Assembly: GCA_945883425.1 (NCBI GenBank)
Contig: CAMCXM010000003.1
Span: forward strand, 1,945 to 65,944
DNA from: Spirosoma fluviale
GTDB lineage: Bacteria > Bacteroidota > Bacteroidia > Cytophagales > Flexibacteraceae
DNA: 64,000 bases
Direction of reading: 5' to 3'
Part shown: positions 16,375 through 64,000 of the stretch, in pieces
Layout of the letters: the number at the start of each line of letters is the position of its first letter
Position numbering within the stretch: the stretch's first letter is position 1
Program-made: the position numbers and the translations under genes
The notes under the pieces: model-generated
Databases searched by the model: none
The model's input: only the letters and a program-made list of their open reading frames with translations
What the model was told of the DNA's origin: nothing

Positions 16375-16515
16375 AATAAGGGAAGCAAGGTAAACAAACT
16401 GGAATACGCCCACAATTGAATGTAAGGCAAAAGAATGGATTGCATCAAAACACAACTTACCAGTAAAACGTTTTTTTCAGGTATTTATTCGGTTGGGGTA
16501 TGATTTCACCATTGT

Positions 16516-43094: not shown

Positions 43095-43190
43095 GAGTAA
43101 AAAATGTAGTGGCAAAAAAATAAATCAGATTTTATGGAATCGTAAATACCGACCAAACGACTTGATTACTCGTTATTATATTTGTTCAGG

Positions 43191-46436: not shown

Positions 46437-47258
46437 TAAATCAATCCTGAGAGAAAAACAGAGATCGTTGAGTTTTGACAAAGGTATAGACAAAATAAAT
46501 CCAGTGGAAATTGAAAGGGATTTTGAAGGTGCTATCCTTGAAACCTGCAGCAGATTGGTTGTTTACTATTCTCTTTGGATTCCTTGAGAAAAATTGACTG
46601 CATTCGGGGAAGTATTGTCCGGCCTTGATTATTAGGAAGTAATTCTTAACAGAATGAAACATCCACTCACAACCCAACATAGGATTTGAGTCCAGGATAG
46701 ATCCAAAAAAAATCAAACAATTTACTCGATTTCGATCGGAACTATTTATTTGATTTCCAATAAACTACGGAAATAAGTCGATCTAAAAAAAGAAAGCAAG
46801 CATCAACTGAAAATCAAAAAAAGAGCCTTCTTGAAATATCGAGAAAAACCAAAAAACCAAATACAAAATTAAAACACTAGTCGAATCGCCCGTTTCCAAC
46901 AATTAGCCTTTTATCTTATAAAATAGCTTTAATTAAGGAACCAACACATCTGCATACCAATTAATCCTATTCCTGCAACCAATTTTGGTCGGCCCATTTA
47001 TCCGAAAAATATCCTTGAACTTTGTCGTTTTTACAGACAGTAGATCTTGTCTTGAATATTCTCCAGAAAACGATCGTCAGGAATAATTCAATTCGTTAAA
47101 TCAGCGTTACTAGCCTCATTCTGAAAAGCTTCATCCCATGGTTAACCACGTATAATTTATCAAACCTCTATTTTACCTAAGCTGGCTTTTCTAGCCAGAT
47201 CAAAATACATATAGTTTTTCTCACTGAACATACCCAGTTCCTTTTGACTTCTGCAACA

Positions 47259-48005
47259 ATGCAAAATGGCATAAAATTGCTTCGACTTATATCTTTACTG
47301 GATAAAGCGGCGAACCTACAAGAGACCAAAAATAAAGTCGATTCTTACGCCAAGCTTCAATCCAATATCATTGTAATTGTCATTGATAACGAATCACAGG
47401 TTGTTCTTCACATAACCAAACCAGCCATAGATTTTTCTGGAATTCATTCGCTAATATCAAAATTTTCTTCATCATACGATTTCCTGAAGCTCATTCAATC
47501 TCAGGACCTTTTTCCCTTCATATCCTTCCAAAATCATTACTGGAAGTCATTAAAAATTGTAGAAAAAGGCGTACACCTTATTGGCAAGATTCAGATCAGA
47601 ATACAGAATACTTCGGGCGACAGTTTTTGTTGCGACGTAGAGAATTTGATTGGTAGTTTTGGATCTAAATCTGAATCGATTTCATTTTATACTCTTGATA
47701 TTCAGAATTTTGAATTCTCCTACAATGGAGATGCGATGCTATTTTGGACAAAGGAGAATTCGATATTGAGAACAGAAAATCTGAATAATCCTGTAGATCT
47801 GAGAACCATTTGTCCACTAAGCAAAAGAGAATTGGAAGTTCTTCAATTAAGTTCAATAGGCAAGACTTCTATCCAGATCGGAAAGGAACTCTTTATATCA
47901 AATCATACCGTGAGTGAACACAAAAAGAAAATCCTGAAAAAGACCCAAACGAATAAATTAACAGCTGCTATTTCAAAGGCGAAAACGGAGGGATGGTTGT
48001 TGTGA
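47259..48005 (+). CDS. LuxR/GerE-family transcriptional regulator with unrecognised N-terminal domain
   Basis: The start is probably ATG 47259; the track starts at TTG 47244. The C-terminal HTH reads LSKRELEVLQLSSIGKTSIQIGKELFISNHTVSEHKKKILKK. The ~185-aa N-terminal domain has no motif I recognise. Confidence 0.85.
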   Translation: MQNGIKLLRLISLLDKAANLQETKNKVDSYAKLQSNIIVIVIDNESQVVLHITKPAIDFSGIHSLISKFSSSYDFLKLIQSQDLFPFISFQNHYWKSLKIVEKGVHLIGKIQIRIQNTSGDSFCCDVENLIGSFGSKSESISFYTLDIQNFEFSYNGDAMLFWTKENSILRTENLNNPVDLRTICPLSKRELEVLQLSSIGKTSIQIGKELFISNHTVSEHKKKILKKTQTNKLTAAISKAKTEGWLL

Positions 48006-48357: not shown

Positions 48358-51300
48358 ATGAGAGCTCTCTCACACTGCCTGATCTCATTTGCGGTTGTCC
48401 TTAATTTACAGGCGGCCGTTCGAACTGCATCAAAAGACGCCAGGAATTCAACTGTCATTTCAAACTTCCGGGTATTGGCAGACCCAATTGATGTAAAAGT
48501 TGCCGGTAATCTGCCATTTTCCAAAGCAATTCCATCCAACCATTTTAGAGCGAATAATAATCAGGGCAAAGGATTTTCGGCGCTTTTTACTTCCGGCATT
48601 TCGTCCGACAAGCATCATGCATCCAATCTGAGCATCGAATCAACCACTGCACCCACCATCTCATCATTTTCTCCGGCAGCGGGCGCCCAGGGCCAAACAA
48701 TTACCCTTACCGGTACCAATTTTAATACCACCGCTTCCCAGAACATTGTCTTCTTCGGCGCAACCAAAGCTACTGTAACGACTGCCACCGCAACCAGCCT
48801 GACAGTGACAGTTCCGGCGGGTGCTACCTACGGGCCCGTTACTGTTCTGAATACGGCGACTTTGCTTTCGGGGGCAAGCACTGCCTTTTTTACCCCGGTC
48901 TTTACGCCTGCCAAATCTGGCTTTACCTCCTGCGATCTGGCTGCCAAGGTGGACTTTGCAGCCGGTTCTTATCCGCTGACGATCGCACTCGGCGATCTGG
49001 ACGGGGATGGTAAAACAGACCTTGCCGTTGCAAATGCGTATGCAAATACTGTTTCTGTTTTCCGGAACACCTCATCTTCAGGAACAATCAACACATTCAG
49101 TTTCTCGGCTAAAGTGGATTTTTATTCCGGTTCAGCTCCGGGGGCGGTCGCCATTGCCGACCTGAACGCGGATGGGAAGCCGGAATTGGTGGTGGCAAAT
49201 CAGTCTTCCAATACGGCTTCAGTATTCCAGAATAATTCTTCTCCGGGTAGTATTTCCACCAGCAGTTTTGGTTCGGCCATCAATTTCTCAACCGGAGCAA
49301 ATCCTTACAGTATTGCTGTCGGAGATCTGGATGGGGATGGAAAGAATGATTTGGTTGTGACCAATTTGAATGCTGCTTCCATTTCAACATTCCGGAATGT
49401 AAGTACCACCACCAGCCTGTCTTCTTCCAGCTTTAGCCCCAAGGTTGATTTTTCAGTTGGAACATCGCCTTACAGCGTGGACCTCGGCGACCTGGATGGC
49501 GACGGAAAAGCTGATCTGGTCGTGGCCAATATCAATTCCAATACCGTTTCCGTACTTCGAAATACAACTACGACCGGAGCATTTACCAGCAGCAGCTTTG
49601 CCCCTAAAGTAGATTTCGCCACCGGGCCATCTCCGAATTGGATTTCGGTTGCAGATGTAGATGGCGACGGCAAGGTAGACTTTGCCACAACCAATGTTTC
49701 CGGCAGCAGTGTTTCGGTTTTTCGCAATACATCTTCAGCGGGAAGTATCTCCAGCAGCAGCTTTGCAACCAAAGTTGACTTCCTGACTGAATCCAATCCA
49801 TCTGCTGTAGAATTTGCTGATATGGATGGCGATGGAAAAACCGACATGGTGGTGTCAAACGGGCAGAACAACACCCTTTCTGTTTTTCGCAATACCGCTG
49901 AAAATGGAAACATCGGTTCATCCAGTTTCTCAGGCAGGGTTGATTTCAATACAGGCTCACTTCCGAGATCCCTCGCAGCCGGTGATCTGGATGGCGATGG
50001 CAAACCAGATCTAGTGTCGACCAACAGTAATTCGAATACCATTTCGGTTTTCCGGAATACAGATATTCCATCCTCGCCTATTCCCGTTATCAGTTCTTTT
50101 TCACCGGCTTCCGGCTGTGCTTATCAAACGACCATCACCATCAGCGGCTCTAACTTTTCAGATGTTACCGGCGTAAGCATTGGCGGGGTACCTGTCAATT
50201 CATTTACCATCAATTCTGACAACCAGATCACAGCCATTGCTGCCGGTATTTCAGGTCCGGTCGCGGCAATCCGGAACTGCAGAACATATGCTGCCAGCCA
50301 GAGCTTTACGGTTTCGAACTGTGCCCCTCAAATAACCTCATTTTCGCCATCCTCCGCAAAACCCGGCGAAACAGTGGTCATCAGCGGGAGTGGTTTTAGT
50401 GCAACAGCCGCACAGAACATTCTCTTCTTCGGCTCGGTAAGATCGGTTGCAACTTCCGCTACCAGTACCAGCATTACTGTGACTGTACCTGCAGGAGCTA
50501 CCTATACCCCCATTCGCGTTCTAAATTCGGCTAACGCCCTTTCAGGAAGCAGCGCTTCGTATTTTACTCCGGTTTTTATTCCTGTCAAAACCGGTTTTTC
50601 GGCTTGTGATTTTTCGCCCAAAACAGATTTTACCAGTGGCAACGGCAATGGAACCGGCTCAGTGGCCATTGGCGATCTGGATGGAGATGGAAAGGCCGAT
50701 ATGGTGGTTGCCAATAACAACAACAATACTGTTTCTGTATTTCGAAATACCTCCACCACCGGGAGCATTACCAGCGGAAGCTTTGGATCTAAGGTTGATT
50801 TTTCCACAGTATCTGCTCCAAAAGCAGTAACCATTGGCGATCTCGATGGTGATGGCAAACCGGAATTAATTGTATCGGGTGGCAATTCCATATCCATTCT
50901 CCGAAATACTACCCTGGGCGGAAGCATAAACAGCAGCAGCTTTGCGGCCAAGGTTGATTTTCTGGCCGGGGCCGATGCCCGATCTGCTGCCATCGGCGAT
51001 CTGGATGGCGACGGAAAACCCGAAATTGTTGTAAGCAATTATGGTTCAAATACCATTTCCGTTTTCAGAAATACCAGCCTGAGCGGCGGTTTCACAGCCA
51101 GCAGTTTCCAATACAAAACGGAATTTGCAACCGGTTCCAATCCGAGTTTTGCCAGCATTGCAGACCTCGATGGAGATCAAAAGCCGGATGTGGTAGTAAG
51201 CAATTACAGTTCCAATACGGTTTCCGTCTACCGGAACACCTCTGCTGCCGGTATTTTTAACTCAGCCGGATTGGCAACGCCCGTTGAATTTACCACTGGC

Positions 51301-54300
51301 ACCAACCCCGCCATGGTTTTATGCGGTGATGTGGACGGTGACGGCAAAACCGATCTGATTGTTCCAAATTTCTCTTCAAACAGCATGTCCATTATGCGGA
51401 ACCAGGCATCTTCGGGAAGTATTCATTCCGGTAGCTTTGGAGCCAAGGCAGATTTTACCACCGGGAACAATCCGTCTTTTGTGGCCATTACAGACCTCAA
51501 CGGAGATGCAAAACCAGATCTGGGAATCCTAAATAATTCCTCTGCTACCGCGTCTTTTTTCCTGAATACATCAACAAGCGGCAGCATTGGAAGCGGCAGT
51601 TTTGCCGAAAGAGTGGATTACAGTACCGGGATTTCAGGCAGCAATCCTTCCACCCTGGCTTTTGCCGATCTGGAAGGTGACGGCCGACCGGAAATGGTGT
51701 TCACCTATGGCCAAAGTCTGGTTTCAGTGCTCCGGAACATCGATCCTGCACCTCCGACCATTGGTTCCTTTTCGCCTTCCAGCGGTTGTGCCTCTTCGGC
51801 TGCCATCACACTGACAGGGACCAATCTTTCTGGTATTACCTCGGTCAGCATCGGCGGCCTGCCTGCCAATAATTTTACGGTCAATTCGGCCACTCAGCTG
51901 ACCATTAATGCTTCAGCCAGTTCCGGCCAGATTATGGTAAGCAATTATTGCGGAAGTGCCACCAGCACGGGTTCGTTTGAAGCACAGAATTGTACCCCTG
52001 TGGTCACATCCATCAGCCCTGTTGCCGCAAAACCAGGTGAAACCATGACCATTACCGGCAGTAATTTCAATGCATCTGTTTCTCAGAATGTGGTTACCTT
52101 CGGCTCGGTGCGTGCGGCGGTAAGTGCATCGTCTACAGGAAGCCTTTCGGTGACAGTACCTTCAGGTGCCGCATATGGGCCCGTTTCTGTGCTGAACAGC
52201 GGCACATCGCTGTCAGGGACTAGTTCTGCCTCTTTTATTCCAACCTTCACCTCTAAAAAAGACACACTTACCACCTGCGATTTTTTACCGAAACTGGATT
52301 TTTCAGCGGGCTCTTCTCCTTCATACGTAGCCATCGGCGACCTGGATGGTGATGGCAAACCCGACCTGGCAGTGACCAACCAGAGTTCCTCTACGGTATC
52401 CGTTTTCCGGAATACTTCGACAAGTGGTGCCATATCAGGAGGTAGCTTTGCCGCTAAAGTGGATTTTACTACGGGAGCATCACCTGTTTCTGTTGCCATC
52501 GGAGATCTGGATGGCGACGGCAAGCCCGATCTTGCTGTGACCAACCTGAGTTCCAATACAGTTTCGGTTTTCCGCAATACCTCGGTAAGCGGAAACATCA
52601 ACAGCAGCAGTTTTGCGGCCAGAGTAGATTTTGCAACGGGCTTAAATCCATATTCTTCAGTAGCCATCGGCGATCTGGATGGCGATGGAAAGCCCGATCT
52701 GGCAGTGGCAAATTATGGTTCCAATACTGTTTCGGTTCTAAGAAACACATCCATAAGCAGCACCATTACTGCCAGCAGTTTTGCTTCAAAGGTGGATTTT
52801 GCTACAGGAAATTACCCATACGCCATAGCGATTGGTGATCTGGATGGTGACGGTAAGGCCGATATGGCAGTGACCAACCGGAGTTCCAATACGGTTTCTG
52901 TTTTCCGCAACACTTCAGTAAGCGGCAACATTTCAGCCAGCAGTTTTGCAGGAAAGGTGGATTTTATAACTGGAAGTTCACCTTATTCGGTGTCCATAGG
53001 GGACCTGGACAGGGACGGAAAGCCGGATCTGGCAGTGGCTAATGCTGTTTCTTCTTCTATATCAGTTTACAGAAATACAGCCAGCACCGGAGCGCTGAAT
53101 ACGACCTCTTTCTCTGCAAAAGTTGACATTTCCACTGGGGCACAACCCTATGCAGTGACTATTGCGGATGTTACAGGGGATGGTAAACCCGATCTGGTTT
53201 CTGCCAACCAGTACAATAACTCTGTTTCCATCATCCGAAATAATTCCTTACCAGGCAGCATTTCAACAGGAAGTTTTGCCCCGCTGATGGTGTATGCCAT
53301 GGGGGCCTATCCTAAAAATGTGGCTTCCTGTGACCTGGATGGCGATGGTTTGCCCGAACTTGTGACAGCCAATTCCAGTTCCAATTCTTTCTCGGTGCTG
53401 AAAAATAAAATGCTGGTTCCAGACCCCGTGATCAGCGGATTCAGTCCATCTTCCGGTTGCGCCGGTACTTCCACTTTTACCCTGTCGGGTTCCAACTTTT
53501 CTGAAATTTCGGCGGTGAGCATCGGCGGTGTTCCGGTGACCTCTTTCACCGTGAATTCAGAAACGGAAATTGTGGTTACGGTCGATGGCATTACCGGACC
53601 GGTGGGCCTAACCAAGAACTGCCGCACCGTTACCAGTTCTGCCAGTTTTACGGTAAACAATTGTGCCACCACCATCGCATCGGTGTCTCCCCTTAGCGGG
53701 AAGGCAGGCGATGCCATTGCCATTACCGGCACCAATTTCAATACCGTACCCAATCAGAATGTGGTGTTTTTCGGAGCCGTTAAGGCCACCGTTACCAATG
53801 CTTCCGCCACAAGCCTGATTGTAAATGTACCGGTGGGAGCCACCTATGCACCGGTAACGGTACTGAATGCCGCAACCCGCTCAATGGCCTCCGCCAGAAA
53901 TGCATTCAACCCTGTTTTCAGCCCGGCCAAAACTGGCTTTACATCCTGCGATCTTCAGCCAAGGGTGGATTTTACCACCGGCAGCTACCCATATTCAGTG
54001 GCCATTGGTGACCTGGACGGAGACGGCAAGCCCGACATGGCAGTGGCTAACGGATCATCCAGCACAATTTCCGTGTACCGAAATACTTCGGTACCCGGCA
54101 CCCTAACTACAAGCAGCTTTGCAGCTAAAGTAGATTTTACAACAGGCTCTAGTCCATATTCGGTTGCCATTGGCGACCTGGATGGCGACGGCAAACCAGA
54201 CCTGGCAGTAAGCAATTACAGTTCCAATACAGTTTCCATATTCCGAAACACTTCCAGTAGTGGCAGCATCAGCTTTGCGACCAAGGTGGATTTCACAACT

Positions 54301-57300
54301 AGCTCTAGTCCCTATTCCGTGGCCATTGGCGATCTGGATGGTGACGGAAAGTCCGATCTGGCAGTGACCAACCTGAGTTCCACTTCAGTTTCGGTTTTCC
54401 GCAATACCTCCGTCAGCGGAAACATCAACAGCAGCAGTTTTGCGGCCAGAGTAGATTTTACAACTGGCTCTAGTCCCTATTCCGTGGCCATTGGCGATCT
54501 GGAAGGTGACGGAAAGTCCGATCTGGCAGTGGCAAATTCTGGTCCCAATACGGTTTCGGTTTTCCGCAATACGTCGGTAAGCGGAAACATCAACAGCAGC
54601 AGTTTTGCGGCCAGAGTAGATTTTACAACAGGCTCTAGTCCCCGTTCCGTGGCCATCGGTGATCTGGATGGCGACGGAAAGCCCGATCTGGTCGCCTCAA
54701 ATAACAACGCTTCTTCACTGTCGATACTACGCAACACATCTGTCAGCGGCAGTATTTCGACCAGCAGTTTTGCTCCAAAAGCAGATGCCAGCACAGGTTC
54801 AAGCCCCAATTCGGTAGCCATCGGCGATCTGGACGGTGACGGTATGCCAGATCTGGCCGTGGTGAGTGGCAGCAGCCAAATTTCAATTCACCGAAATGGC
54901 GTGCCGGTGCTGCCCACCATTACCGGCATTTCCCCAGCTTCCGTGTGCGGAGCCTCGGGTACCATCACCATCAGCGGCACCAACCTGAGCGGAGTAACAT
55001 CAGTACGCGTGGGTGGAACAGCTGTTGCTTCTTACACCATCAATTCAGACAACCAGATTGCAGCGGTGGTTACCGGCAATTCCGGGGTATTTTCAGTGAG
55101 TACTTACTGCAGCACAGTCTCAGGAACCGATACCCTGAAATTCACGAACTGTACACCAACGATCACCGCATTTACACCGGCTGCCGCCGCACCGGGTGCC
55201 AGCGTTACCCTGACGGGTAGCAATTTTAATTCCCAGGCCGCCCTGAATGTTGTGTATTTCGGGGCTGCAAAGGCAACCGTAACCTCCGCAACTGCAAACA
55301 GCCTTACGGTAACGGTACCTTCCGGATCTACTTATGCACCCATCACCGTATTGAATACTGTAACCGGACTTTCGGGAGCCAGCCTTTCGCCTTTTATTCC
55401 GGTTTACAGCCCTGCCAAAACCGATCTTACTTCCTGTGATTTTAAAGACAAAGTAGATTTTACAACCGGTACCAACCCTTATTCTGTAGCATTTGGCGAT
55501 ATCGATGGCGACGGAAAACCCGATATGGCGGTGGCGAATTCCAATTCCTTTGCGGTTTCGGTTTATCGGAACATTTCCGCAACAGGCAGCCTTTCCAGTA
55601 ACAGCTTTGCTTCAAAAGTTGATCTAAGCCTTCCTTCTTATGTGTTCTCGGTTGGTTTTTCAGATTTGGATGGTGATGGCAAGCTTGACCTGGTAGTCGC
55701 CAATAGTAATTATTGGGGATCAAGTAATGTTTCGGTCTTTCGTAATATTGCTACTACCGGCAACCTATCAACCGCCAGTTTTGCCCCAAGGATTGATCTT
55801 GGATTAGGTAGTTATCTGTATTTGTATCATGCAGCTGCAGGTGATCTGGATGGTGATGGGAAACCTGATCTTGCGGTACCTTACCAAAGTAATTCGGGTA
55901 GTAGTATAATAGCTCTTTATCGCAACACATCAACAAGTGGGATCATCAGTTTCGCATCCGGTGGGACATTGACATTGGCAAATTATTCGTACCCTTATTC
56001 AGTAGCGATAGGCGATCTCGATGGAGATAACAAATCAGATCTGGCAATAGCCAACCAAAACAGTAATTCAATTTCTCTCTTCCGGAATATTTCCGTCAGC
56101 GAAACACTGAGCACAAGCAGCTTTGCTACAAGAATAGATTTTGCTACCGGCACAAATCCATATTCCCTGTCCATCGGCGATCTGGATGGAGACGGTAAAC
56201 CGGAGCTTGCTGTTGCCAACCGAACCTCAAATACAGTCTCTTTATTCCGGAATACCGCCATTAGCGGCAGCCTGAGCAGCAGCAGTTTTGCGGCCAAAGT
56301 GGATTTACCCACAGGGACAAATCCAAGGTGTGTAAGCATCGCCGACCTCAGTGGTGATGGCAAACCGGATCTGGCCGTGGCAAACGAAACGGCCAATTCA
56401 GTATCCATATTCCGAAACACATCTGTAAGTGGCAGCCTGAGCAGCAGTAGCTTTGCTCCAAAGCTGGATTTTCCTACCAGTACGAATCCTTATTCTGTGG
56501 CGGTGGGTGACCTTGATGGCGATGGACTTCCGGAGCTGGCAACCGCCAATTATGGCGCCAACTCGGTTTCGGTACTCAAAAACATTAAATCCGATTCCAT
56601 TCCACCTCAACCTGTCATAAACTCCTTTACCTCAGAGATTTGTGCTTCATTCACCGGAAATATTACCATTAATGGTTCTGGTTTTAATGGCATCACCTCT
56701 GTGAGCATCGGAGGACTACCCGTTTCTTCCTTTATCGTAAACTCTCCGACCGAAATCACGGCAACCATCAATACGGTGGTAAAGGGTATCATCCGGGTTG
56801 CCAATTACTGCAAATCTGCTCAAAGCACCGACTCACTGCGGGTTCTCAATTGTTCCCCCGTTATTTCGGCTTTTGCTCCGGCAGGGGCCTTGCCTGGCGA
56901 CACAATTTTAGTGAGTGGTTCAAACTTTCACTCGACTGCTAGCGAAAACGAGGTACAGTTCGGAGCTGTAAAAGCAATTGTGACAGCGGCTTCTGCATCC
57001 AGTTTGTCGGTCGTAGTTCCGATCGGTGCAACCCATGCCCCTATTTCTGTACTGAATAAAACAAATAGACTGTCTGGAGCAAGCAAATCTGCATTTGTAC
57101 CGAAATTTATTCCACCAAAAAGTGACTTTACCAGCAGTGATCTTGCCCCAAAGATTGATTTTTCTTCAGGCACTCCTTATTCGGTTTCTGTTTGCGATCT
57201 GGATGGCGATGGAAAACCTGATGTGATTACGGGGAATTATTCCAGACTTGTTTCGATTTTCCGGAATGTGTCTGCTTCCGGCAGCCTGAACAGCAGCAGT

Positions 57301-60300
57301 CTTACATCCAAGGTTGATCTGACGGCTGCCTATAATTACGTTTATGATACCGACTTTTCTGACCTGGATGGCGATGGCAAGCAGGATTTAATTGCAGCCA
57401 ATACAAATGAAGACTACTACAATCGTGTTTCTGCAATTTCCATTTTCAGGAATACATCATCCGCAGGCAGCATTTCCACCGGTAGTTTTTCTGCAAGGTT
57501 AGACCTGGGACTCTCAGGAATGTCCTTGCTCAGTGTTGCAGCAGGAGATTTGGATGGAAATGGAAAACCTGACCTCGTGATACCTTACTATAACAATGGT
57601 GGCTATAGCTATCTGGGCATCTATAGAAATACTTCAACCTCAGGAAGCATCAGTTTTGCATCAAGAGTAGAATGGATATTACCGTACAATTCAAATCCTC
57701 GAAATGTTGCCATTGGTGATCTGGATGGAGATGGGAAAGCCGATCTCATTGTAGCCAATTCAAGTCAGAACAACATCTCCGTTTTCCGGAATATTTCAAA
57801 TAGTGGCAACCTTACTACCAGCAGCTTTGCCGCAAGGGTGGATTTTGTCACCGGCACCAATCCTTACTCAGTGGCCATTGGTGATCTGGACGGGGATGGA
57901 AAACCGGACCTTTCGGTTGTCAATTATGGTTCCAATTCCGTTTCTGTTTTCCGCAATGTTTCTGTCACTGGCAACCTGAACAGCAATAGCTTTGCTTCGC
58001 GTGTAGACTTTACTACAGGCAGCAACCCCGTTTCTGTACATGTCGGGGACATCACTGGTGACGGCAGACCCGACCTGGCTGTAGCAAACGCCGGTTCTGC
58101 TTCCAATACCATATCAGTTTTCCGGAATGCAACCACCGTGGGCAACATTACAGGAAGTAGTTTTGTTCCGGCAAGTTTTTCTGCAGGCTCCTATCCCAAT
58201 TCCGTCTCCATCGCCGATCTGGATGGAGACAGCAAAGCCGATCTGGCTGCGGTTAACCAAAATTCCTCAACCTTATCCCTATTTCGTAACACGGACTCTC
58301 AGCTTCCCTACATAGCGTCTTTCAGTCCGACATCCGGCTGTGCAGGTTCAGCAAATATTACCATCAACGGTGCCAATCTTGCTGGTGCTACTTCTGTTCG
58401 GATCGGAGGAACAAATGTTACCTCTTTCACCATTGTTTCTGAATCCAGGATTACAGCCACCATCGGAAATGGCACAACCGGCCTTATCAATATCATCACA
58501 CCATTTGGCACGGCTGCATCTCAAGACACATTCAGGGTAAATCCCCGTCCTTCTGTCAGCATCACACCTTCCGGACCTACCAGTTTTTGTTCAGGCCAGA
58601 ATGTTACCTTAACTGCCAGTGCCGGGCAGTCCTACCAATGGACGCCGGGTGGGCAAACCACTCAAGCCATCAATGTCACCCAATCCGGTGTTTACACGGT
58701 AAAAGTTTTTAACGCAACAGGTTGTTTCTCCTCGGCAACCCAGGAAGTTTCGGTTATCAGCACATTGCCGGTTGTAATCAATGCCAGCGGTCCTACAACC
58801 TTCTGTAATGGAGACAGTGTGACACTAACAGCCAGTGGGGCGAATAGCTATGTATGGAGCCCGGGTGGACAAACCTCGGCCAGCATTAAGGTAAAAACAG
58901 GAGGAAACTACAGCGTTACCGGAACCACTTCGAGCTGTACAGGTACAGCCAGTCAATTGGTTACGGTTAACACCCCAACTGCTCCGGTTATCTCGGTTTC
59001 AGGGCCTGTTTCATTCTGTTCCGGTGGGTCGGTTACCTTAACCTCCTCCAGTGCTACGGGTAATCTCTGGTCCAATGGCGCCACCAGCCAAAGCATTGTG
59101 GTTACCAGCAGCGGGAGTTTCTCCGTAAAAAGAACCGATGCCAATGGATGTCTCTCTGGTAATTCATCTGCTGTTACGGTTACCGTTTCAGCAGTTCCAA
59201 CGGTTCCAACGATTTCTGCTTCCGGTCCGCTTACCTTTTGCCAGGGAGGCAGCGTTATATTGACTTCTTCAGCCGCTTCCGGCAATAGCTGGAGCAACGG
59301 GTTAACCAGCCAGAGCATCTCGGTTACCAGCAGCGGAAATTACACCGTGACCGTGGGGTCTGGATGTACAAGTACTTCCCTGGCTACCGCAGTTTCTGTG
59401 TCCCCATCCACCCAGGGAACTTTTGCTCCTATTGCGGCATTTTGTGCAGGCAGCACTGCCCCTGTTTTACCTCTTACCTCCAACAACGGCATTTCCGGTA
59501 CCTGGAACCCACAGACTGTGAGCAACACAGCTTCAGGCAATTATGTTTTTACTCCCACTTCCGGGTCCTGTATTGTAAATACGACTTTGCCGGTTTCGGT
59601 AATCCAGAATGTCACTCCGTCCTTCGGTACTTTAGGCCCAATTGCCTATGGAACGACGGCTCCCAGCCTGCCGGCTACATCTCTAAACGGCATCAGCGGA
59701 ACCTGGAACCCAGCTACCGTAAGCAATACACAAACAAGAGATTACACCTTTATTCCCAATCATGGGCAATGTGCCAATCCGGTTACCATTACCATTGTTG
59801 TCAATAACTATCCTGATCTGGCGGTACAGAATGTTTCATCACCGTTATCAGATAAATCTCCTGGTGATGTGGTAACAGTTTCATGGACAATAGCCAATAC
59901 CGGCTCTGCCCAATCCTTTACAAACTGGACGGAGCGCATCTATCTCCAGACACCAACCGGTCAAAACCGAACCCAGATCAAGCAATCCGTTTACACAACT
60001 TCGGATGTTATTGCTCCCGGTCAATCTATTTCAAGGACGGACAATATTACCCTTCCCCCACAAATAACCGTGGGCGATCAGGCAGTATTCGTTGTGGAAA
60101 TCCTTCCCGGGAATACCATTACCGAGGCACCCGGCACCAGTTCCAACAATACCGGTGTTCAATCTTCTGCCTGGAATATCCGAAAAACATTTACGATTCA
60201 GTTGACCTCAACGCAAATTACAGAAGGTTCAAGCACTGGTGTTTCGGTTACCGTAAGCCGTAGTGGTTCGGTTGTTGGAACGCAGTCTTTTGACATTGCC

Positions 60301-63300
60301 CTCAATCCATCAAACCGATTTTCGTTTCCTTCTACCCTCACCTTCCAGGCCGGACAGGTGAGCCGGACATTTACCCTCCTGGCAACAGATAATGCGCTCA
60401 TTGAGGGTAATATCGCCGCCACTCTTTCGGCTTCGGCTTCTGGTTTTCAAACGGCAACGGCCAATATAACCATTATAGAAGACGATAAACCCAGCCTGAG
60501 CATTACTGGATTACCAGATACGACCGGCGAAGGCGTGGTTTTAAACTTTACGGTGCAAACCAATCTGGCGCCGGTTTCTCCCTTAACTGTTTATCTGACC
60601 AGTAACAACAACACCCGTTTTCCTGTTCCGGCATCGGTCACCATTCCGGCTGGCCAGCTTTCCGCAAATGGCTCCATCAATCTGGTACAGGATAATACAC
60701 CTGAATTAAATGTAAATGTAAGCCTCACTGCTGGAGCTGCCAACCACAATTCAGCTACCAAAGTTCTGCACCTCACCGATGATGATATTCCGGGTATAGA
60801 GCTGGTCTTTCAAACCAAAACTGTTTCTGAATCTCAGGGTTTTTATGCGACACAGGCAACCATAAGACGTGTTGCGGGTGGTAATCCGATTGCCTTTTCG
60901 GTTAATTTATCGGCCAGTCTTTCCAATACGCTGATCCTTCCATCCAGTATACCTCTTGCTGCCAATGAGTTATCCAAGACATTTACGGTTGGTGTGGTAG
61001 ACGACGGACAGGTGAACGGCGCCAGAAATGTGACGGTATCTGCTGCTCTGTATGTGTCTTCATGCGGCTGCAGTGCGCCCAATACCACGGCTGGTTACTT
61101 TCAGGATACACTGCGGGTTCTGGATAATGACGGACCCACCCTAACCTTGTCTATGCCAGTTCTGACTCTTGGAGAAGGTCAGTCGAATGCCGGGTTACTT
61201 CGGATTACCCGAAATACTCCAACTGGTGCACCATTGGTAGTAAACCTTTTGTCAAGCAATACAGGCGAGGCGATGGTTCCGACATCAGCCACAATACCGG
61301 CGGGGTCCGCCTACATTGATGTATCGGTAACAACCATAAACGATAATATTACCGATGGCAGCAAACAGGTAAACCTGACGGCCTCTTCCAATGGATTTTC
61401 ATCCGGATCGCTTTGGGTGATTGTAACAGACATCAACAAACCGGATCTGGTTTTACAAAACGTGAACATCAGTTCGGCTTCAGTTGAAGCAAAAACCATT
61501 TTTACCTATGGTTTTAGAGTTTCTAATTCTGGTTTTGCCCACAATCCTGCCGGGGTTCGGGTGAAAGGGTATTTGTCGAAAGACAACATTCTGGATGCTT
61601 CTGACAGTCTTCTCAGCAATGACCAGATTTCTCAACCTGTACTAACCAACGAGCCTTACGATTTTGTGAATGCCATTCAGGCACCCAACAGGCCTGGCCA
61701 ATACAAGATTATTTTTCAAGTGAATCTGGATGCAGAATTTTCAGAACTGAGTTATGATAACAACACTTCAGCCGGACAAAGCTTACAGATTACCCCCGAA
61801 TATGATGCAACCGCTGCAGTTGATTCCTTGTGGTATTTGAGAGGTACAGCCATTGACATCCGTGGAACAGCAACCAAAACCAACGGAAGCCCGGCTGGAG
61901 ATGTTCCGGTGGATATCTATATCATATCCAACGGCCTGCGGCGTACCTTCAGTGCCCGGACCGATCAGCAAGGCCGCTACCAGTATCGTTTTCAACCTTT
62001 GAGCAGTGAAGTAGGAAGCTATACAGCAGGTGCCTGCTTTCCGGGATATGCTGCCTCTGAAACAGATGATGCGTTTGATATCCTCGGGGTCCGAATTAAT
62101 AATGGGACATTCCCACAATTTAAAATCACATTTGGCGACACACTGAAAGGAAAGTTGCTGGTAACCAATCTTTCAGGATATACGATCCGGAATGTTGGTC
62201 TGAGTCCGGACATTTTGCCACAAGGTGCTAATTTTCAGTTTGGCCTTATTCCTCAACTGAGTCCTCAGGGAAGTGATTCCATTTGGTTCCGGGCCTGGGG
62301 CAGCAGTCTTTCATCCGGAAATATTTTTCTTCCTACTTCCTTTCAGGTAACCTGCTCAAAAGGGAACCTTCAGAAGCAGGATGCCTATTATTTCTGCCAG
62401 GCAAGGCAGGCGTATATCGCTGCCAGCCTCAACCGGATGGATGTGAGGATTTCCTCATCTGTAGGGCAAAAAATTGTCCAGTTCAGGTTAACGAATTCCG
62501 GACAAGGAAATTCCGGACAGATTTCGGTTAATCTTCCTCAGAGCAACTGGCTTAGCTCTGTTTCACCGGTAACCATTCCGAATCTGGGACCAGGTGATAC
62601 TGCTTCGGTCATCCTTCGGTTTGCTGCCATAGCGGAAGTGCCATTTGGTTATCCTTTGAATGGAACCATCGGTATTCAAACGGCAAACGGAAACTCCTTT
62701 TCGATTCCCTTCACTTTTGAGAAAGTATCGCAGACTTCTGGTGTGGTGGCCATTGAAGCCACCAATCAGTTTACCTTTTTCGCAGATGGCGCTCCTAAAG
62801 TGGCCGGGGCGCAAGTAACCATAAAGAATTACTATACGGGGCAGGTCTACGGGCAGGGAACAACCGATTCTTCCGGAAAATTTTATGCTACCGGTGTGCC
62901 GGAAGGAGTTCATCGCCTGACCGTAGAAAAAGAAAGGCACCAGACCTTTTCCGGAAACATTGAGATCAATCCGGGTGATACCGTAAGCCGATCTGTTTTT
63001 CTCAATTATCAGGCCATTACCTTCAACTGGAATGTAGAACCCACAGCCATTGAGGACCAGTACGACATCACCCTGAATACCACCTTTGAAACCAACATCC
63101 CTATGCCGGTGGTGGTCCTGGATATGCCCAAAACAATGCCCGATTTGCAAGGGGATCAGGAATATGCATTTATGGTAACTTTTACCAATCATGGACTTAT
63201 TACAGCCAAGGATCTTGCATTAAATTTACCCCAATCTGATCCGGAATATGAGTTTGTTACGAACTACACGCCATCTGATCTATTGGCATTGCAGAGCATA

Positions 63301-64000
63301 CAAGTGCCAGTCATTATGAGGCGGCGACAATATCAGGCTGGACCTGTGGTTGGAAAACCAACTTTTGGTGAAATATCGACTTTTCTCGGAATTAATTCGC
63401 CGGGTATGGTTTTGCAATCCTCGAGTTTACCTTGTCAAGATTTTACTAATTATGTTTATGGATATTATTGTGGTGGAAATGGAGTTTGGCAGAAAAGTGG
63501 AGTTTTATTTTCATATATAGGAAGAAGTTGTGCGGGAGGAGGAGGAGGAGGCAGTAGTCTTTGTTGGAGTTGCATTGGAGGTGGAATTAGCTATCCGCCT
63601 TGTGCATTCTGCCCCGAGCCACCCCCCGGCGGTAATGGAACAACTCCCCCTCCTGTTGAAACTGAAAAGAAAAATTGTGCTCAATGCATTAATGAATTAA
63701 CTCAATCGATAGCCAGTTGTTTAGGAGTTAATAATCCAATTACTGAGGTCCCTTTAGTATGTGCAGCCAACGAAATTATTAGTGGGAATCCATCAGTCAA
63801 AAGTTTTAAATCTTGTCTTGCTGAATCTTATATAGAGAAAGTTATAGAAAACAAGGATGTCCAAATTCTGGCTTTTGGGAAGGCTTTACCAATTATATCT
63901 CAGGTTTTGTGCGTGAGAGGTCTTTGGAATGCACTTTCTACTTGTAAAAGTTCATCTGAAAATCAATCGAGAAATGGTTCTGGGAATAGTGTAAACTCAG
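48358..64000 (+). CDS. giant secreted multi-propeller FG-GAP/IPT surface protein (partial, 3' end beyond window)
   Basis: It is not in the supplied ORF track. Frame 1 opens after TAA 48244-48246, and the first ATG is at 48358 (MRALSHCLISFAVVLNLQAAV). My hand translation was continuous over 48358-50900 and 63361-64000 and spot-checked at about 10 further points out to 64000, and showed no stop. The track also lists no frame-1 ORF in this interval. Confidence 0.9.
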   Translation, partial: MRALSHCLISFAVVLNLQAAVRTASKDARNSTVISNFRVLADPIDVKVAGNLPFSKAIPSNHFRANNNQGKGFSALFTSGISSDKHHASNLSIESTTAPTISSFSPAAGAQGQTITLTGTNFNTTASQNIVFFGATKATVTTATATSLTVTVPAGATYGPVTVLNTATLLSGASTAFFTPVFTPAKSGFTSCDLAAKVDFAAGSYPLTIALGDLDGDGKTDLAVANAYANTVSVFRNTSSSGTINTFSFSAKVDFYSGSAPGAVAIADLNADGKPELVVANQSSNTASVFQNNSSPGSISTSSFGSAINFSTGANPYSIAVGDLDGDGKNDLVVTNLNAASISTFRNVSTTTSLSSSSFSPKVDFSVGTSPYSVDLGDLDGDGKADLVVANINSNTVSVLRNTTTTGAFTSSSFAPKVDFATGPSPNWISVADVDGDGKVDFATTNVSGSSVSVFRNTSSAGSISSSSFATKVDFLTESNPSAVEFADMDGDGKTDMVVSNGQNNTLSVFRNTAENGNIGSSSFSGRVDFNTGSLPRSLAAGDLDGDGKPDLVSTNSNSNTISVFRNTDIPSSPIPVISSFSPASGCAYQTTITISGSNFSDVTGVSIGGVPVNSFTINSDNQITAIAAGISGPVAAIRNCRTYAASQSFTVSNCAPQITSFSPSSAKPGETVVISGSGFSATAAQNILFFGSVRSVATSATSTSITVTVPAGATYTPIRVLNSANALSGSSASYFTPVFIPVKTGFSACDFSPKTDFTSGNGNGTGSVAIGDLDGDGKADMVVANNNNNTVSVFRNTSTTGSITSGSFGSKVDFSTVSAPKAVTIGDLDGDGKPELIVSGGNSISILRNTTLGGSINSSSFAAKVDFLAGADARSAAIGDLDGDGKPEIVVSNYGSNTISVFRNTSLSGGFTASSFQYKTEFATGSNPSFASIADLDGDQKPDVVVSNYSSNTVSVYRNTSAAGIFNSAGLATPVEFTTGTNPAMVLCGDVDGDGKTDLIVPNFSSNSMSIMRNQASSGSIHSGSFGAKADFTTGNNPSFVAITDLNGDAKPDLGILNNSSATASFFLNTSTSGSIGSGSFAERVDYSTGISGSNPSTLAFADLEGDGRPEMVFTYGQSLVSVLRNIDPAPPTIGSFSPSSGCASSAAITLTGTNLSGITSVSIGGLPANNFTVNSATQLTINASASSGQIMVSNYCGSATSTGSFEAQNCTPVVTSISPVAAKPGETMTITGSNFNASVSQNVVTFGSVRAAVSASSTGSLSVTVPSGAAYGPVSVLNSGTSLSGTSSASFIPTFTSKKDTLTTCDFLPKLDFSAGSSPSYVAIGDLDGDGKPDLAVTNQSSSTVSVFRNTSTSGAISGGSFAAKVDFTTGASPVSVAIGDLDGDGKPDLAVTNLSSNTVSVFRNTSVSGNINSSSFAARVDFATGLNPYSSVAIGDLDGDGKPDLAVANYGSNTVSVLRNTSISSTITASSFASKVDFATGNYPYAIAIGDLDGDGKADMAVTNRSSNTVSVFRNTSVSGNISASSFAGKVDFITGSSPYSVSIGDLDRDGKPDLAVANAVSSSISVYRNTASTGALNTTSFSAKVDISTGAQPYAVTIADVTGDGKPDLVSANQYNNSVSIIRNNSLPGSISTGSFAPLMVYAMGAYPKNVASCDLDGDGLPELVTANSSSNSFSVLKNKMLVPDPVISGFSPSSGCAGTSTFTLSGSNFSEISAVSIGGVPVTSFTVNSETEIVVTVDGITGPVGLTKNCRTVTSSASFTVNNCATTIASVSPLSGKAGDAIAITGTNFNTVPNQNVVFFGAVKATVTNASATSLIVNVPVGATYAPVTVLNAATRSMASARNAFNPVFSPAKTGFTSCDLQPRVDFTTGSYPYSVAIGDLDGDGKPDMAVANGSSSTISVYRNTSVPGTLTTSSFAAKVDFTTGSSPYSVAIGDLDGDGKPDLAVSNYSSNTVSIFRNTSSSGSISFATKVDFTTSSSPYSVAIGDLDGDGKSDLAVTNLSSTSVSVFRNTSVSGNINSSSFAARVDFTTGSSPYSVAIGDLEGDGKSDLAVANSGPNTVSVFRNTSVSGNINSSSFAARVDFTTGSSPRSVAIGDLDGDGKPDLVASNNNASSLSILRNTSVSGSISTSSFAPKADASTGSSPNSVAIGDLDGDGMPDLAVVSGSSQISIHRNGVPVLPTITGISPASVCGASGTITISGTNLSGVTSVRVGGTAVASYTINSDNQIAAVVTGNSGVFSVSTYCSTVSGTDTLKFTNCTPTITAFTPAAAAPGASVTLTGSNFNSQAALNVVYFGAAKATVTSATANSLTVTVPSGSTYAPITVLNTVTGLSGASLSPFIPVYSPAKTDLTSCDFKDKVDFTTGTNPYSVAFGDIDGDGKPDMAVANSNSFAVSVYRNISATGSLSSNSFASKVDLSLPSYVFSVGFSDLDGDGKLDLVVANSNYWGSSNVSVFRNIATTGNLSTASFAPRIDLGLGSYLYLYHAAAGDLDGDGKPDLAVPYQSNSGSSIIALYRNTSTSGIISFASGGTLTLANYSYPYSVAIGDLDGDNKSDLAIANQNSNSISLFRNISVSETLSTSSFATRIDFATGTNPYSLSIGDLDGDGKPELAVANRTSNTVSLFRNTAISGSLSSSSFAAKVDLPTGTNPRCVSIADLSGDGKPDLAVANETANSVSIFRNTSVSGSLSSSSFAPKLDFPTSTNPYSVAVGDLDGDGLPELATANYGANSVSVLKNIKSDSIPPQPVINSFTSEICASFTGNITINGSGFNGITSVSIGGLPVSSFIVNSPTEITATINTVVKGIIRVANYCKSAQSTDSLRVLNCSPVISAFAPAGALPGDTILVSGSNFHSTASENEVQFGAVKAIVTAASASSLSVVVPIGATHAPISVLNKTNRLSGASKSAFVPKFIPPKSDFTSSDLAPKIDFSSGTPYSVSVCDLDGDGKPDVITGNYSRLVSIFRNVSASGSLNSSSLTSKVDLTAAYNYVYDTDFSDLDGDGKQDLIAANTNEDYYNRVSAISIFRNTSSAGSISTGSFSARLDLGLSGMSLLSVAAGDLDGNGKPDLVIPYYNNGGYSYLGIYRNTSTSGSISFASRVEWILPYNSNPRNVAIGDLDGDGKADLIVANSSQNNISVFRNISNSGNLTTSSFAARVDFVTGTNPYSVAIGDLDGDGKPDLSVVNYGSNSVSVFRNVSVTGNLNSNSFASRVDFTTGSNPVSVHVGDITGDGRPDLAVANAGSASNTISVFRNATTVGNITGSSFVPASFSAGSYPNSVSIADLDGDSKADLAAVNQNSSTLSLFRNTDSQLPYIASFSPTSGCAGSANITINGANLAGATSVRIGGTNVTSFTIVSESRITATIGNGTTGLINIITPFGTAASQDTFRVNPRPSVSITPSGPTSFCSGQNVTLTASAGQSYQWTPGGQTTQAINVTQSGVYTVKVFNATGCFSSATQEVSVISTLPVVINASGPTTFCNGDSVTLTASGANSYVWSPGGQTSASIKVKTGGNYSVTGTTSSCTGTASQLVTVNTPTAPVISVSGPVSFCSGGSVTLTSSSATGNLWSNGATSQSIVVTSSGSFSVKRTDANGCLSGNSSAVTVTVSAVPTVPTISASGPLTFCQGGSVILTSSAASGNSWSNGLTSQSISVTSSGNYTVTVGSGCTSTSLATAVSVSPSTQGTFAPIAAFCAGSTAPVLPLTSNNGISGTWNPQTVSNTASGNYVFTPTSGSCIVNTTLPVSVIQNVTPSFGTLGPIAYGTTAPSLPATSLNGISGTWNPATVSNTQTRDYTFIPNHGQCANPVTITIVVNNYPDLAVQNVSSPLSDKSPGDVVTVSWTIANTGSAQSFTNWTERIYLQTPTGQNRTQIKQSVYTTSDVIAPGQSISRTDNITLPPQITVGDQAVFVVEILPGNTITEAPGTSSNNTGVQSSAWNIRKTFTIQLTSTQITEGSSTGVSVTVSRSGSVVGTQSFDIALNPSNRFSFPSTLTFQAGQVSRTFTLLATDNALIEGNIAATLSASASGFQTATANITIIEDDKPSLSITGLPDTTGEGVVLNFTVQTNLAPVSPLTVYLTSNNNTRFPVPASVTIPAGQLSANGSINLVQDNTPELNVNVSLTAGAANHNSATKVLHLTDDDIPGIELVFQTKTVSESQGFYATQATIRRVAGGNPIAFSVNLSASLSNTLILPSSIPLAANELSKTFTVGVVDDGQVNGARNVTVSAALYVSSCGCSAPNTTAGYFQDTLRVLDNDGPTLTLSMPVLTLGEGQSNAGLLRITRNTPTGAPLVVNLLSSNTGEAMVPTSATIPAGSAYIDVSVTTINDNITDGSKQVNLTASSNGFSSGSLWVIVTDINKPDLVLQNVNISSASVEAKTIFTYGFRVSNSGFAHNPAGVRVKGYLSKDNILDASDSLLSNDQISQPVLTNEPYDFVNAIQAPNRPGQYKIIFQVNLDAEFSELSYDNNTSAGQSLQITPEYDATAAVDSLWYLRGTAIDIRGTATKTNGSPAGDVPVDIYIISNGLRRTFSARTDQQGRYQYRFQPLSSEVGSYTAGACFPGYAASETDDAFDILGVRINNGTFPQFKITFGDTLKGKLLVTNLSGYTIRNVGLSPDILPQGANFQFGLIPQLSPQGSDSIWFRAWGSSLSSGNIFLPTSFQVTCSKGNLQKQDAYYFCQARQAYIAASLNRMDVRISSSVGQKIVQFRLTNSGQGNSGQISVNLPQSNWLSSVSPVTIPNLGPGDTASVILRFAAIAEVPFGYPLNGTIGIQTANGNSFSIPFTFEKVSQTSGVVAIEATNQFTFFADGAPKVAGAQVTIKNYYTGQVYGQGTTDSSGKFYATGVPEGVHRLTVEKERHQTFSGNIEINPGDTVSRSVFLNYQAITFNWNVEPTAIEDQYDITLNTTFETNIPMPVVVLDMPKTMPDLQGDQEYAFMVTFTNHGLITAKDLALNLPQSDPEYEFVTNYTPSDLLALQSIQVPVIMRRRQYQAGPVVGKPTFGEISTFLGINSPGMVLQSSSLPCQDFTNYVYGYYCGGNGVWQKSGVLFSYIGRSCAGGGGGGSSLCWSCIGGGISYPPCAFCPEPPPGGNGTTPPPVETEKKNCAQCINELTQSIASCLGVNNPITEVPLVCAANEIISGNPSVKSFKSCLAESYIEKVIENKDVQILAFGKALPIISQVLCVRGLWNALSTCKSSSENQSRNGSGNSVNS
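48652..50325 (+). repeat. super-module 1 (IPT-like, 7 FG-GAP blades, IPT-like), 1674 nt
   Basis: The anchor APTISSFSP is at 48649. There are seven D.DGDGK.D-type loops (e.g. LGDLDGDGKTDLAVAN). The second IPT-like domain starts with PVISSFSPASGC. Confidence 0.85.
50326..51996 (+). repeat. super-module 2, 1671 nt, 7 blades
   Basis: The anchor NCAPQITSFSP has its Pro codon at 50326. Seven Ca-loop blades were counted by eye. Confidence 0.85.
51997..53667 (+). repeat. super-module 3, 1671 nt, 7 blades
   Basis: The anchor NCTPVVTSISP has its Pro codon at 51997. There are seven blades, most reading IGDLDGDGKPDLAV(T/A)N. Confidence 0.85.
53668..55155 (+). repeat. super-module 4, 1488 nt, only 6 blades
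   Basis: The anchor is NNCATTIASVSP. Six Ca-loop blades were counted. It is 183 nt shorter than modules 2 and 3. Confidence 0.8.
55156..56856 (+). repeat. super-module 5, 1701 nt, 7 blades
   Basis: The anchor NCTPTITAFTP has its Pro codon at 55156. There are seven blades, two with longer insertions. Confidence 0.85.
56857..58545 (+). repeat. super-module 6, ~1689 nt, 7 blades
   Basis: The anchor NCSPVISAFAP has its Pro codon at 56857. There are seven blades, and the module ends at ...FRVN before PRPSVS. Confidence 0.85.
58546..59400 (+). other. four ~70-80-aa Cys-containing Ig-like repeats within the giant ORF
   Basis: The pattern SGP.(S/T)FC.G.SVTLT(A/S)S......W(S/T).G.T(S/T)..I.V...G.Y.V......C recurs four times. 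Confidence 0.7.
59809..61790 (+). other. CARDB-like domain, four Calx-beta-like repeats, then a second CARDB-like domain within the giant ORF
   Basis: PDLAVQNVSSP...GDVVTVSWTIANTG (59809-~60180) is CARDB-like. Four ~100-115-aa units ending in ..(E/D)DD.P / LDNDGP / TDINKP (60181-61440) are Calx-beta-like. PDLVLQNVNIS...FRVSNSG...YDNN (61441-~61790) is CARDB-like. These are motif-level calls only. Confidence 0.6.

Follow-up and report, generated by a model that had tools for sequence, protein, structure and literature searches.

Six stacked FG-GAP propellers in a giant predicted surface protein of Spirosoma fluviale: an apparently common but unstudied design in Bacteroidota

The last part of the 64,000-nucleotide (nt) stretch analysed here (the window; contig CAMCXM010000003.1 of Spirosoma fluviale, positions 1,945 to 65,944 of the forward strand) is occupied by a giant open reading frame (ORF), which starts at window position 48358 and is still open where the window ends. 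In an earlier note, made from the letters of the sequence, this ORF was read as six stacked modules, each with an FG-GAP propeller between two immunoglobulin-like (Ig-like) IPT domains, in an architecture that was not recognised as described. The locus raises the question of whether such an ORF is a real gene, whether its architecture is as unusual as it appears, and what a protein of this kind might do. The main result is a correction: the architecture, which seems unique when seen in one sequence, is common, and is not to be ranked as a discovery. The window is chromosomal, encoding DnaX, GDH and PheT. PheT has 98% identity to a metagenome sequence but only about 50-52% to Larkinella, Spirosoma and Dyadobacter, which placed the organism in an uncultured lineage of Bacteroidota close to Cytophagales. 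Coordinates below are those of the window, amino acid (aa) positions are those of the giant protein, and all features of the giant gene lie on the forward strand.

Translated from the ATG at 48358 to 63999, frame 1 runs through 5,214 codons and meets no stop before the window ends, in agreement with the earlier note, and the nearest in-frame stop on the 5′ side is at 48244. In agreement with the same note, the accompanying ORF list contains only off-frame and antisense shadow ORFs in 48358-64000; the giant ORF is missing because ORFs still open at the end of the source are not listed. Residues 1-19, MRALSHCLISFAVVLNLQA (48358..48414), followed by AVR, show on inspection the charged, hydrophobic and AxA-like arrangement of a Sec signal peptide, with a hydrophobic core at aa 3-14 and a putative cleavage site between LQA and A, and the signal-peptide-like N-terminus described earlier is therefore upheld. 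This N-terminus is conserved in an orthologue (P0121; 5,551 aa) that was assembled independently in one ENA and one JGI metagenome. The two proteins align collinearly across 3,820 aa at 78% identity and without a frameshift. Over 3,767 codons, the ratio of non-synonymous to synonymous substitution rates (Ka/Ks) between them is 0.147 (0.12-0.16 in modules 1-5), which lies between the extremes seen in the flanking genes (0.08-0.25). The highest value within the gene, 0.42, is found at aa 20-96 (48415..48645), an N-terminal region of 73% identity to P0121 that has no Pfam match and no recognised domain.

The giant ORF has no stop codon inside the window, and it could in principle be a decaying or mis-assembled repeat region, without function, that has stayed open by chance. 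A stretch of 15.6 kilobases (kb) without a stop is, however, unexpected by chance, and a Ka/Ks of ~0.15 speaks against decay. The modules share 45-56% identity in protein and 52-60% in DNA and their DNA has no exact repeats of 60 nt or longer; they are too diverged to mis-assemble, so their number is not an assembly artefact. With an orthologue of the same architecture assembled independently and in conserved synteny, a non-functional origin is effectively refuted. The giant ORF is a real gene under purifying selection.

Six consecutive modules extend from aa 97 to aa 3395. The anchor motif that had been seen to recur along the ORF was located at aa 98, 654, 1211, 1768, 2264 and 2831, within a few bases of its earlier placement. 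Module 1 (aa 97-653, 557 aa; 48646..50316) comprises an IPT-A domain, a seven-blade FG-GAP propeller and an IPT-B domain (domain string AbbbbbbbB), as assigned from Pfam TIG, FG-GAP and FG-GAP_3 matches and from the module alignment. Modules 2 (aa 654-1210, 557 aa; 50317..51987) and 3 (aa 1211-1767, 557 aa; 51988..53658) also have seven blades each, while module 4 (aa 1768-2263, 496 aa; 53659..55146) has six, one fewer than in P0121. Seven blades are again found in module 5 (aa 2264-2830, 567 aa; 55147..56847), which has insertions in blades 2 and 3, and in module 6 (aa 2831-3395, 565 aa; 56848..58542), which has these blade 2/3 insertions in common with module 5 and has only 60% identity to its counterpart in P0121. 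The 41 calcium-loop blades counted in the note were recovered, as 7, 7, 7, 6, 7 and 7, by regular expression and by a blade hidden Markov model (HMM) built from the giant protein. A relaxed expression finds all 41 loops; the strict form DxDxDGxx[DE] is present in 30, and the remaining 11 have one substitution.

Pfam and structure prediction both bear out the earlier domain assignment. In aa 1-2700, the Pfam families FG-GAP_3 (PF13517; 1.2e-244, 31 stretches), FG-GAP (PF01839; 5.5e-194, 30 stretches) and TIG (PF01833; 1.3e-68, nine stretches) were all detected; the remainder of the protein adds eight further stretches each of FG-GAP_3 and FG-GAP, and two of TIG. Module 3 was modelled with AlphaFold2 from an alignment of the six paralogous modules. 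The model has a mean predicted local distance difference test score (pLDDT) of 89.7 and a predicted template modelling (TM) score of 0.80, and consists of seven four-stranded blades between two Ig-like domains, residues 1-85 and 481-556 forming all-beta domains. In Foldseek, it matches the seven-bladed propellers of ITFG2, BBS9 and LGI1-EPTP (target-normalised TM 0.68-0.76). At the sequence level, the module has weak matches in the PDB, to the propeller of integrin alpha-IIb (E ~4e-4) and to the rhamnogalacturonan lyase YesW (E 5e-5). The conserved Cys pair (SGC...NC) reported for the second Ig-like domain is present, but the conserved Cys residues are not limited to it: four module positions (2, 97, 491 and 545) hold Cys in most modules, modules 1 and 6 being without one or two of them. 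These positions may give two disulfides, of which one would tie IPT-A to the linker that enters the propeller and the other would lie within IPT-B. The Bacteroidota O-glycosylation motif D[ST][AILVMT] occurs just 14 times in the 5,214 aa, which is nothing notable.

YesW, as the module's best PDB sequence match and a member of its Foldseek list, invites the thought that the propellers are catalytic and PL11-like, and the protein a giant multi-catalytic polysaccharide-degrading enzyme. PL11 lies within the same VCBS/FG-GAP supercluster (PMC9218822). The YesW match is nonetheless marginal, with 14% identity and a query-normalised TM of 0.37, and YesW is eight-bladed whereas the propellers here are seven-bladed. 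All 41 blades follow one strong consensus, and their identity is about 50% regardless of position (50.1% within a module, 51.4% at the same position across modules, 49.3% otherwise). Near-uniform blades of this kind are easier to reconcile with binding or a structural role than with an asymmetric active site, and no CAZyme or other catalytic match was found in Pfam or NCBIfam. A catalytic array is accordingly regarded as very improbable.

To assess the prevalence of this design, module 2 was searched exhaustively with HMMER against 1.84 billion cluster representatives. This search returned 103,921 matches at E<=1e-3, 12,793 of them at E<=1e-30, and domain strings were written for the best 150 of these 12,793 with IPT-A, blade and IPT-B HMMs built from the window protein. 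Propeller counts per protein were taken from this search; the other homologue listing gave proteins of at most 2,537 aa for the core described below and of less than 1,000 aa for the module. Each of the 150 proteins has at least two IPT+propeller units: two units in 28, three in 51, four in 36, five in 20, six in 11, seven in two and eight in two. Six or more units are thus present in 15 of the 150, with the maximum of eight in P0122 (4,954 aa) and P0123 (6,941 aa). The strict arrangement of IPT, propeller and IPT is less frequent among these best matches. It occurs six times over in P0121 only and five times in P0134, P0146, P0154 (NCBI MDX2189123.1; 7,398 aa) and P0159, the last two being proteins of 7.4 thousand aa with six units each; 112 of the 150 have no strict module, and most consist of IPT-propeller units without the second IPT.

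These counts do not bear out the premise, stated in the note, that bacterial FG-GAP/VCBS proteins hold one propeller, since all 150 of the best matches hold two to eight units. Nor can the stacked architecture be called unrecognised, with 12,793 relatives, 15 of the best 150 carrying at least six units, and a six-module orthologue in two metagenome assemblies. The note had allowed that six-propeller architectures might prove to be both common and characterised; they are common in the databases, and they are not characterised. Homologues are named only FG-GAP-like, "VCBS repeat-containing" or "T9SS type A sorting domain-containing protein", by automatic annotation. Literature searches combining FG-GAP with type IX secretion systems (T9SS), and giant genes with FG-GAP, found nothing, and no experimental characterisation of a multi-propeller family was found in the database names or the literature searched. 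VCBS/FG-GAP propellers with DxDxDG loops are themselves a recognised supercluster, in which proteins with as many as 47 similar blades in a row are on record and which is typically tied to carbohydrate recognition and protein-protein interaction (PMC9218822). A survey of integrin-type propellers recorded at most two tandem copies per bacterial protein (Chouhan et al., 2011; PMC3192720), as against six here. A C-terminal T9SS sorting domain is present in eight of ten checked relatives with at least six propellers (Por_Secre_tail in seven; CHU_C in one, the eight-propeller P0122), and thousands of shorter one- or two-unit IPT+propeller homologues carry PF18962. Judged from these domain strings, the multi-propeller design is common among surface proteins of Bacteroidota and unstudied, and the giant protein belongs to it.

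Not all of the giant protein belongs to this array; its last 1,400 codons, which the note did not single out, begin a separate, conserved core family. P0121 shares 78% identity up to aa ~3,820, after which similarity is absent, and homology in DNA ends near 59730. The tail of P0121 is an array of CARDB domains that ends at a TAA TAA stop without a recognisable C-terminal sorting domain (CTD). From aa 3761/3819 to aa 5196, by contrast, the window protein is 43-46% identical, in the same domain order, to proteins from a Cytophagales metagenome-assembled genome (MAG; L001, 4,726 aa), Dyadobacter sp. SG02 (L002, 3,709 aa), a Flavobacteriales MAG (L003) and metagenomes (P0001 and P0002). The heads of the core relatives are diverse: beta-helices in L002 and L008, delta-60-like propeller repeats in L007, a Reelin-like head in L001, and none in P0026-28, in which the core begins at aa ~154. 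The FG-GAP/IPT array is in no core relative examined. Since P0121 keeps the head on an unrelated tail, and the core is found under different heads, head and tail appear to be cassettes that can be separated and were exchanged where two domains meet. On these alignments the giant protein is a chimera, with a propeller/Ig head (aa 1-~3,810) on a conserved core (aa 3,819 onward).

The P0121 locus (L005, 10001-30850) corresponds to scaffold_34 of ENA ERZ28593844 and is also present in JGI 3300043504. In both L005 and L006, the giant gene is preceded by genes for a Por_Secre_tail protein, a Peptidase_C14+TPR protein and a GerE regulator, in this order. A gene for a 1,387-aa protein with DUF6531, RHS repeats (15 stretches) and a YD-shell begins 31 nt after the stop of P0121 and encodes its own signal peptide. 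This arrangement could potentially be explained if the giant protein were the contact or delivery arm of a system for inter-bacterial competition, in which the propellers bind the target cell and a toxin resides in the C-terminal part or is encoded downstream. The blades give weak matches to Pfam TcdB_toxin_midN, Foldseek lists the TcB-TcC chains of Tc toxin, and the exchange of heads and tails recalls polymorphic toxin loci. The RHS gene, however, is a separate ORF after the TAA TAA, with a signal peptide of its own, and the tail of the window protein differs from that of P0121. Downstream of the core relatives there is no RHS or toxin gene (a CTD protein follows L001, a STAND NTPase follows L002, and unrelated minus-strand ORFs follow L008), and the part of the giant protein in the window has no toxin domain. 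A role in competition is on balance unlikely. Among the three loci compared (L001, L002 and L008), no downstream partner gene is conserved across the core family.

Between the propellers and the core lie six small Cys-containing Ig-like domains (aa 3396-3818; 58543..59811), four with GPxxFCxG and two with GISGTWNP by regular expression; this region is the last that the protein has in common with P0121. Pfam Ig_7 (CHU_C-associated) scores 24.2 bits here, under its cut-off of 27.3, and there are short matches of 43-71% identity to proteins named for a "gliding motility-associated C-terminal domain". The core family starts with a first CARDB domain (Pfam; aa 3819-3931; 59812..60150), BLASTP homology to L001, L002, L003 and P0001 beginning at aa 3761-3820. 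About four Calx-beta-like or DUF5006-LapA-like repeats follow (aa ~3932-4374; 60151..61479; boundaries approximate), with the family consensus EG..TV.RSG...TF.L...VTIPAGQS...DN four times over and with DUF5006 and LapA Pfam matches in P0026 and P0032. Next come a second CARDB or N_BRCA1_IG-like Ig domain (Pfam; aa 4375-4457; 61480..61728) and about five beta-sandwich domains (aa 4479-4989; 61792..63324), which include a CarboxypepD_reg domain at aa 4815-4879 (Pfam, 3e-15). In an AlphaFold2 model this beta-sandwich string (model residues 20-530) has a pLDDT of ~85-95; in Foldseek it retrieved only MG/Ig-like arrays (alpha-2-macroglobulins, hydin-like proteins, the adhesin extender 6xi3 and SbsB) at query-normalised TM 0.12-0.18. 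The window closes, with the ORF still open, in a Cys/Gly/Pro-rich linker and a poorly predicted helical segment of low pLDDT (aa ~4990-5214; 63325..64000). The linker is conserved in the core family, with CxxC-type motifs and conserved Cys columns in the family alignment.

The last ~500 aa of the window ORF are 52% identical to L007 and 43% to L008, and 42-50% to relatives on genome contigs. Proteins of ~2,450 aa from other phyla match the core at 23-32% identity, so that the family ranges from Bacteroidota to Verrucomicrobiota, Planctomycetota, Myxococcota and Kiritimatiellota. In the relatives the core extends ~1,150 aa past the point at which the window ends (aa 2273-3409 of the L002 protein; aa 3308-4477 of the L001 protein). 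This part contains the motifs VCA...Q....TR.AF.GTL...NG and LTYF.QRD..GDD and has no match in Pfam, NCBIfam or the PDB. It is followed by PKD/MBG/Flg_new domains and then by a T9SS CTD: Por_Secre_tail in P0026-28 (~2,500 aa) and L001, and CHU_C (3e-18) in L008. The Por_Secre_tail scores of P0026 and L001 fall just under the Pfam cut-off of 27 bits, with the whole domain covered and at the extreme C-terminus. Because the core relatives continue for ~1,150 aa and then through PKD-type domains to a CTD, the full length of the giant protein is predicted to be ~6,600-7,000 aa, and the 5,214 codons would be the first ~80% of a secreted surface protein. As to the function of the core, NCBIfam gave nothing above cut-off and a PDB profile search only single Ig-like domains.

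Several known identities were tried for the 5,214 aa and rejected. An alpha-2-macroglobulin or other thioester protein would not fit: CxEQ is absent from the ORF, a single non-conserved CIEQ occurs among 13 relatives, the Pfam MG2 match is below cut-off, and the Foldseek matches to MG/Ig beads reach a TM of 0.12-0.15. An adhesin of the RTX/LapA type, exported by a type I secretion system (T1SS), was set aside, as no RTX nonapeptide (GGxGxDxUx) was found and a Sec-type signal is present; the C-terminus lies beyond the window. The LapA/DUF5006-like Calx repeats are present only as generic beta-sandwiches. Neither an LPXTG sortase anchor nor an HExxH protease motif was found.

The short gliding-associated matches at aa 3396-3818 raise the alternative of a gliding adhesin of the SprB/RemA type, that is, a type B CTD cargo moved by the T9SS-linked gliding machinery while its propellers grip the substratum. 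A type B CHU_C domain does end the core relative L008 and the eight-propeller P0122, the size of the giant protein is near that of SprB (6,497 aa), and the genome has a PorP/SprF gene. On the other hand, seven of the eight CTDs in multi-propeller relatives are of type A, and no PorP/SprF-like gene adjoins the giant gene upstream, the one in the window belonging to another cargo operon 43 kb away. No SprB-repeat match was obtained in Pfam, Ig_7 is under its cut-off, and the short Ig matches reflect shared generic domains. Gliding is thus held to be an improbable function.

The reading preferred here, with a probability of roughly 65%, is that of a T9SS-exported, C-terminally anchored adhesin fibre with Ca2+-loaded propellers, multivalent and perhaps multi-specific. 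The long surface fibre or multivalent binder proposed in the note is likewise judged the most reasonable view of function. The protein would enter the periplasm by its Sec signal peptide and then be translocated by the T9SS and anchored at its C-terminus. The proximal C-terminal half, made up of CARDB, Calx-like, MG-like and CarboxypepD_reg beta-sandwiches, the Cys-rich linker and the ~1,150-aa part, would form stalk and anchor. In the distal N-terminal half, the six Ig-like spacers would hold out the six diverged units of IPT, seven-blade FG-GAP propeller and IPT. With a DxDxDGxxD Ca2+ site in each blade, the loaded propellers may act as rigid knobs that bind carbohydrate or protein ligands, and head and core cassettes would be exchanged by recombination at domain junctions.

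Behind this proposal stand a real gene under selection, the folds of its domains, the chimeric make-up, T9SS genes in the genome and the sorting domains that relatives of the head and of the core carry. In the window, the T9SS is represented by PorP/SprF and by two other CTD cargo proteins, one with CHU_C and one with Por_Secre_tail. Export and anchoring of the giant protein itself by the T9SS, its binding of Ca2+ and of ligands, and its geometry are inferred. Several points weigh against the proposal. The C-terminus is outside the window, so that the protein's own sorting domain is assumed, and no CTD is recognisable at the end of P0121, to which the head is most closely related. Ca2+ binding is predicted from the loop motif. 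The ~1,150-aa part of the core, which has no recognisable fold or family, could also hold an activity that changes the picture.

A more tentative proposal, considered possible but doubtful, concerns the core, which at ~2,500 aa would be a widespread and undescribed scaffold for surface display on which unrelated heads are swapped at domain junctions. Its order would be CARDB, four Calx-like repeats, CARDB, MG-like beta-sandwiches, CarboxypepD_reg, Cys/Gly/Pro linker, the ~1,150-aa part, PKD-type domains and a sorting domain. The six propellers would then make up a multi-specific receptor array and not a simple stalk, and the window would have captured one product of head exchange.

Traces of how the array evolved are found at the level of both modules and blades. 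The blade 2/3 insertions shared by modules 5 and 6 indicate duplication of a whole module. A few blades of module 3 are 78-87% identical to blades of module 4, and module 4 itself has six blades in the window and seven in the orthologue (L005 ~15300-16960), where an offset between BLASTN segments corresponds to ~174 nt extra in L005. Together, these two features suggest recent intragenic conversion or the gain or loss of a blade, as is known from VCBS propellers (PMC9218822). Identity to the P0121 counterpart is 82-87% for modules 1-5 but only 60% for module 6, whose Ks is saturated and which appears from this comparison to be the fastest-changing or a replaced unit.

Among known systems, the closest are the multi-propeller T9SS cargo proteins (P0121, P0154 and P0122), in which the same unit of IPT and seven blades is stacked two to eight times, with a signal peptide and Ig-like spacers; none examined joins the array to this CARDB/Calx-like core. 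The propellers of integrin alpha chains and of bacterial integrin-type proteins are likewise seven-bladed FG-GAP propellers with DxDxDG-type loops. Integrins have the Ca loop in only a subset of blades, whereas the loop motif is in all 41 blades here. The giant protein has neither the thigh and calf domains, nor the transmembrane helix, nor the beta subunit of integrins. An integrin alpha subunit was rejected as an identity, with no thigh- or calf-type domain in Pfam and with IPT-framed propellers in six copies; the likeness is limited to the predicted Ca2+-loaded FG-GAP propeller. Bacterial integrin-type propellers are also more regular than human ones (PMC3192720). In the Oscillospiraceae (Clostridia), RCC1 giants are predicted to be extracellular and to hold many seven-bladed propellers (West-Roberts et al., 2023, bioRxiv 10.1101/2023.11.21.568195). 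They differ in being RCC1 and not FG-GAP/VCBS proteins, in phylum and secretion route, and in having one domain throughout, with neither an IPT frame nor the core.

The "auxiliary nutrient binding proteins" of Bacteroides (PDB 4hw6 and 3tc9) are among the top whole-module Foldseek matches by E-value (8e-12 to 1.5e-10), and similarly, as surface proteins of Bacteroidota, have a beta-propeller after an Ig-like (IPT) domain. They are single-unit proteins of ~420 aa from polysaccharide-utilisation loci, however, and with 9-14% identity, TM 0.32-0.45 and a root-mean-square deviation of 12-17 Å, the likeness is at the domain level only. SprB of Flavobacterium johnsoniae is a T9SS-dependent giant of repeated beta-rich domains, with SprB repeats, a type B CTD and a cognate SprF, and without FG-GAP propellers. 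The giant protein resembles it in size and in its repeated beta-rich domains, but has FG-GAP propellers instead and no SprB-repeat match.

Directly upstream of the giant gene lies a gene for a GerE/LuxR-type protein (47244..48005, forward strand; Pfam GerE 3e-15), in the same position as in L005 and L006; this synteny makes it a candidate regulator of the giant gene. On the reverse strand follow genes for a Peptidase_C14 (caspase-like) and TPR protein of 1,100 aa (43191-46493) and for a 789-aa Ig-repeat protein with Por_Secre_tail (40746-43115). Both are syntenic with L005/L006 at 87% DNA identity and may, on account of this synteny, be functionally linked to the giant gene. Between an ABC transporter and these adhesin-associated genes, two small forward-strand ORFs of 120 and 107 aa are found at 39215-40138, the second of which resembles an XRE-type helix-turn-helix protein. 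This may be a variable islet, as an otherwise similar Logan contig (L004) has PIN_3 and DUF6364 genes there. At the other end of the window, an operon on the reverse strand encodes a T9SS type B cargo protein of 2,313 aa with ten Ig_7, five PKD_6 and a CHU_C domain by Pfam (5346-12287), followed next by PorP/SprF (4323-5327; 1.5e-65), an OmpA+PD40 protein (2987-4297) and a DUF6089 outer-membrane beta-barrel (1958-2935). This operon (1958-12287) resembles an adhesin-anchor pair of the SprB/SprF type.

For the biology of the family, T9SS cargo proteins with IPT and FG-GAP propellers number in the thousands and have as many as eight propellers, without a dedicated literature. The comparison with the orthologue offers a clean example of head/tail cassette exchange in giant adhesin genes, and the C-terminal core, as a large family conserved across several phyla, merits a family description. 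The 557-aa module, with a model of pLDDT ~90, offers a tractable start for work on ligands.

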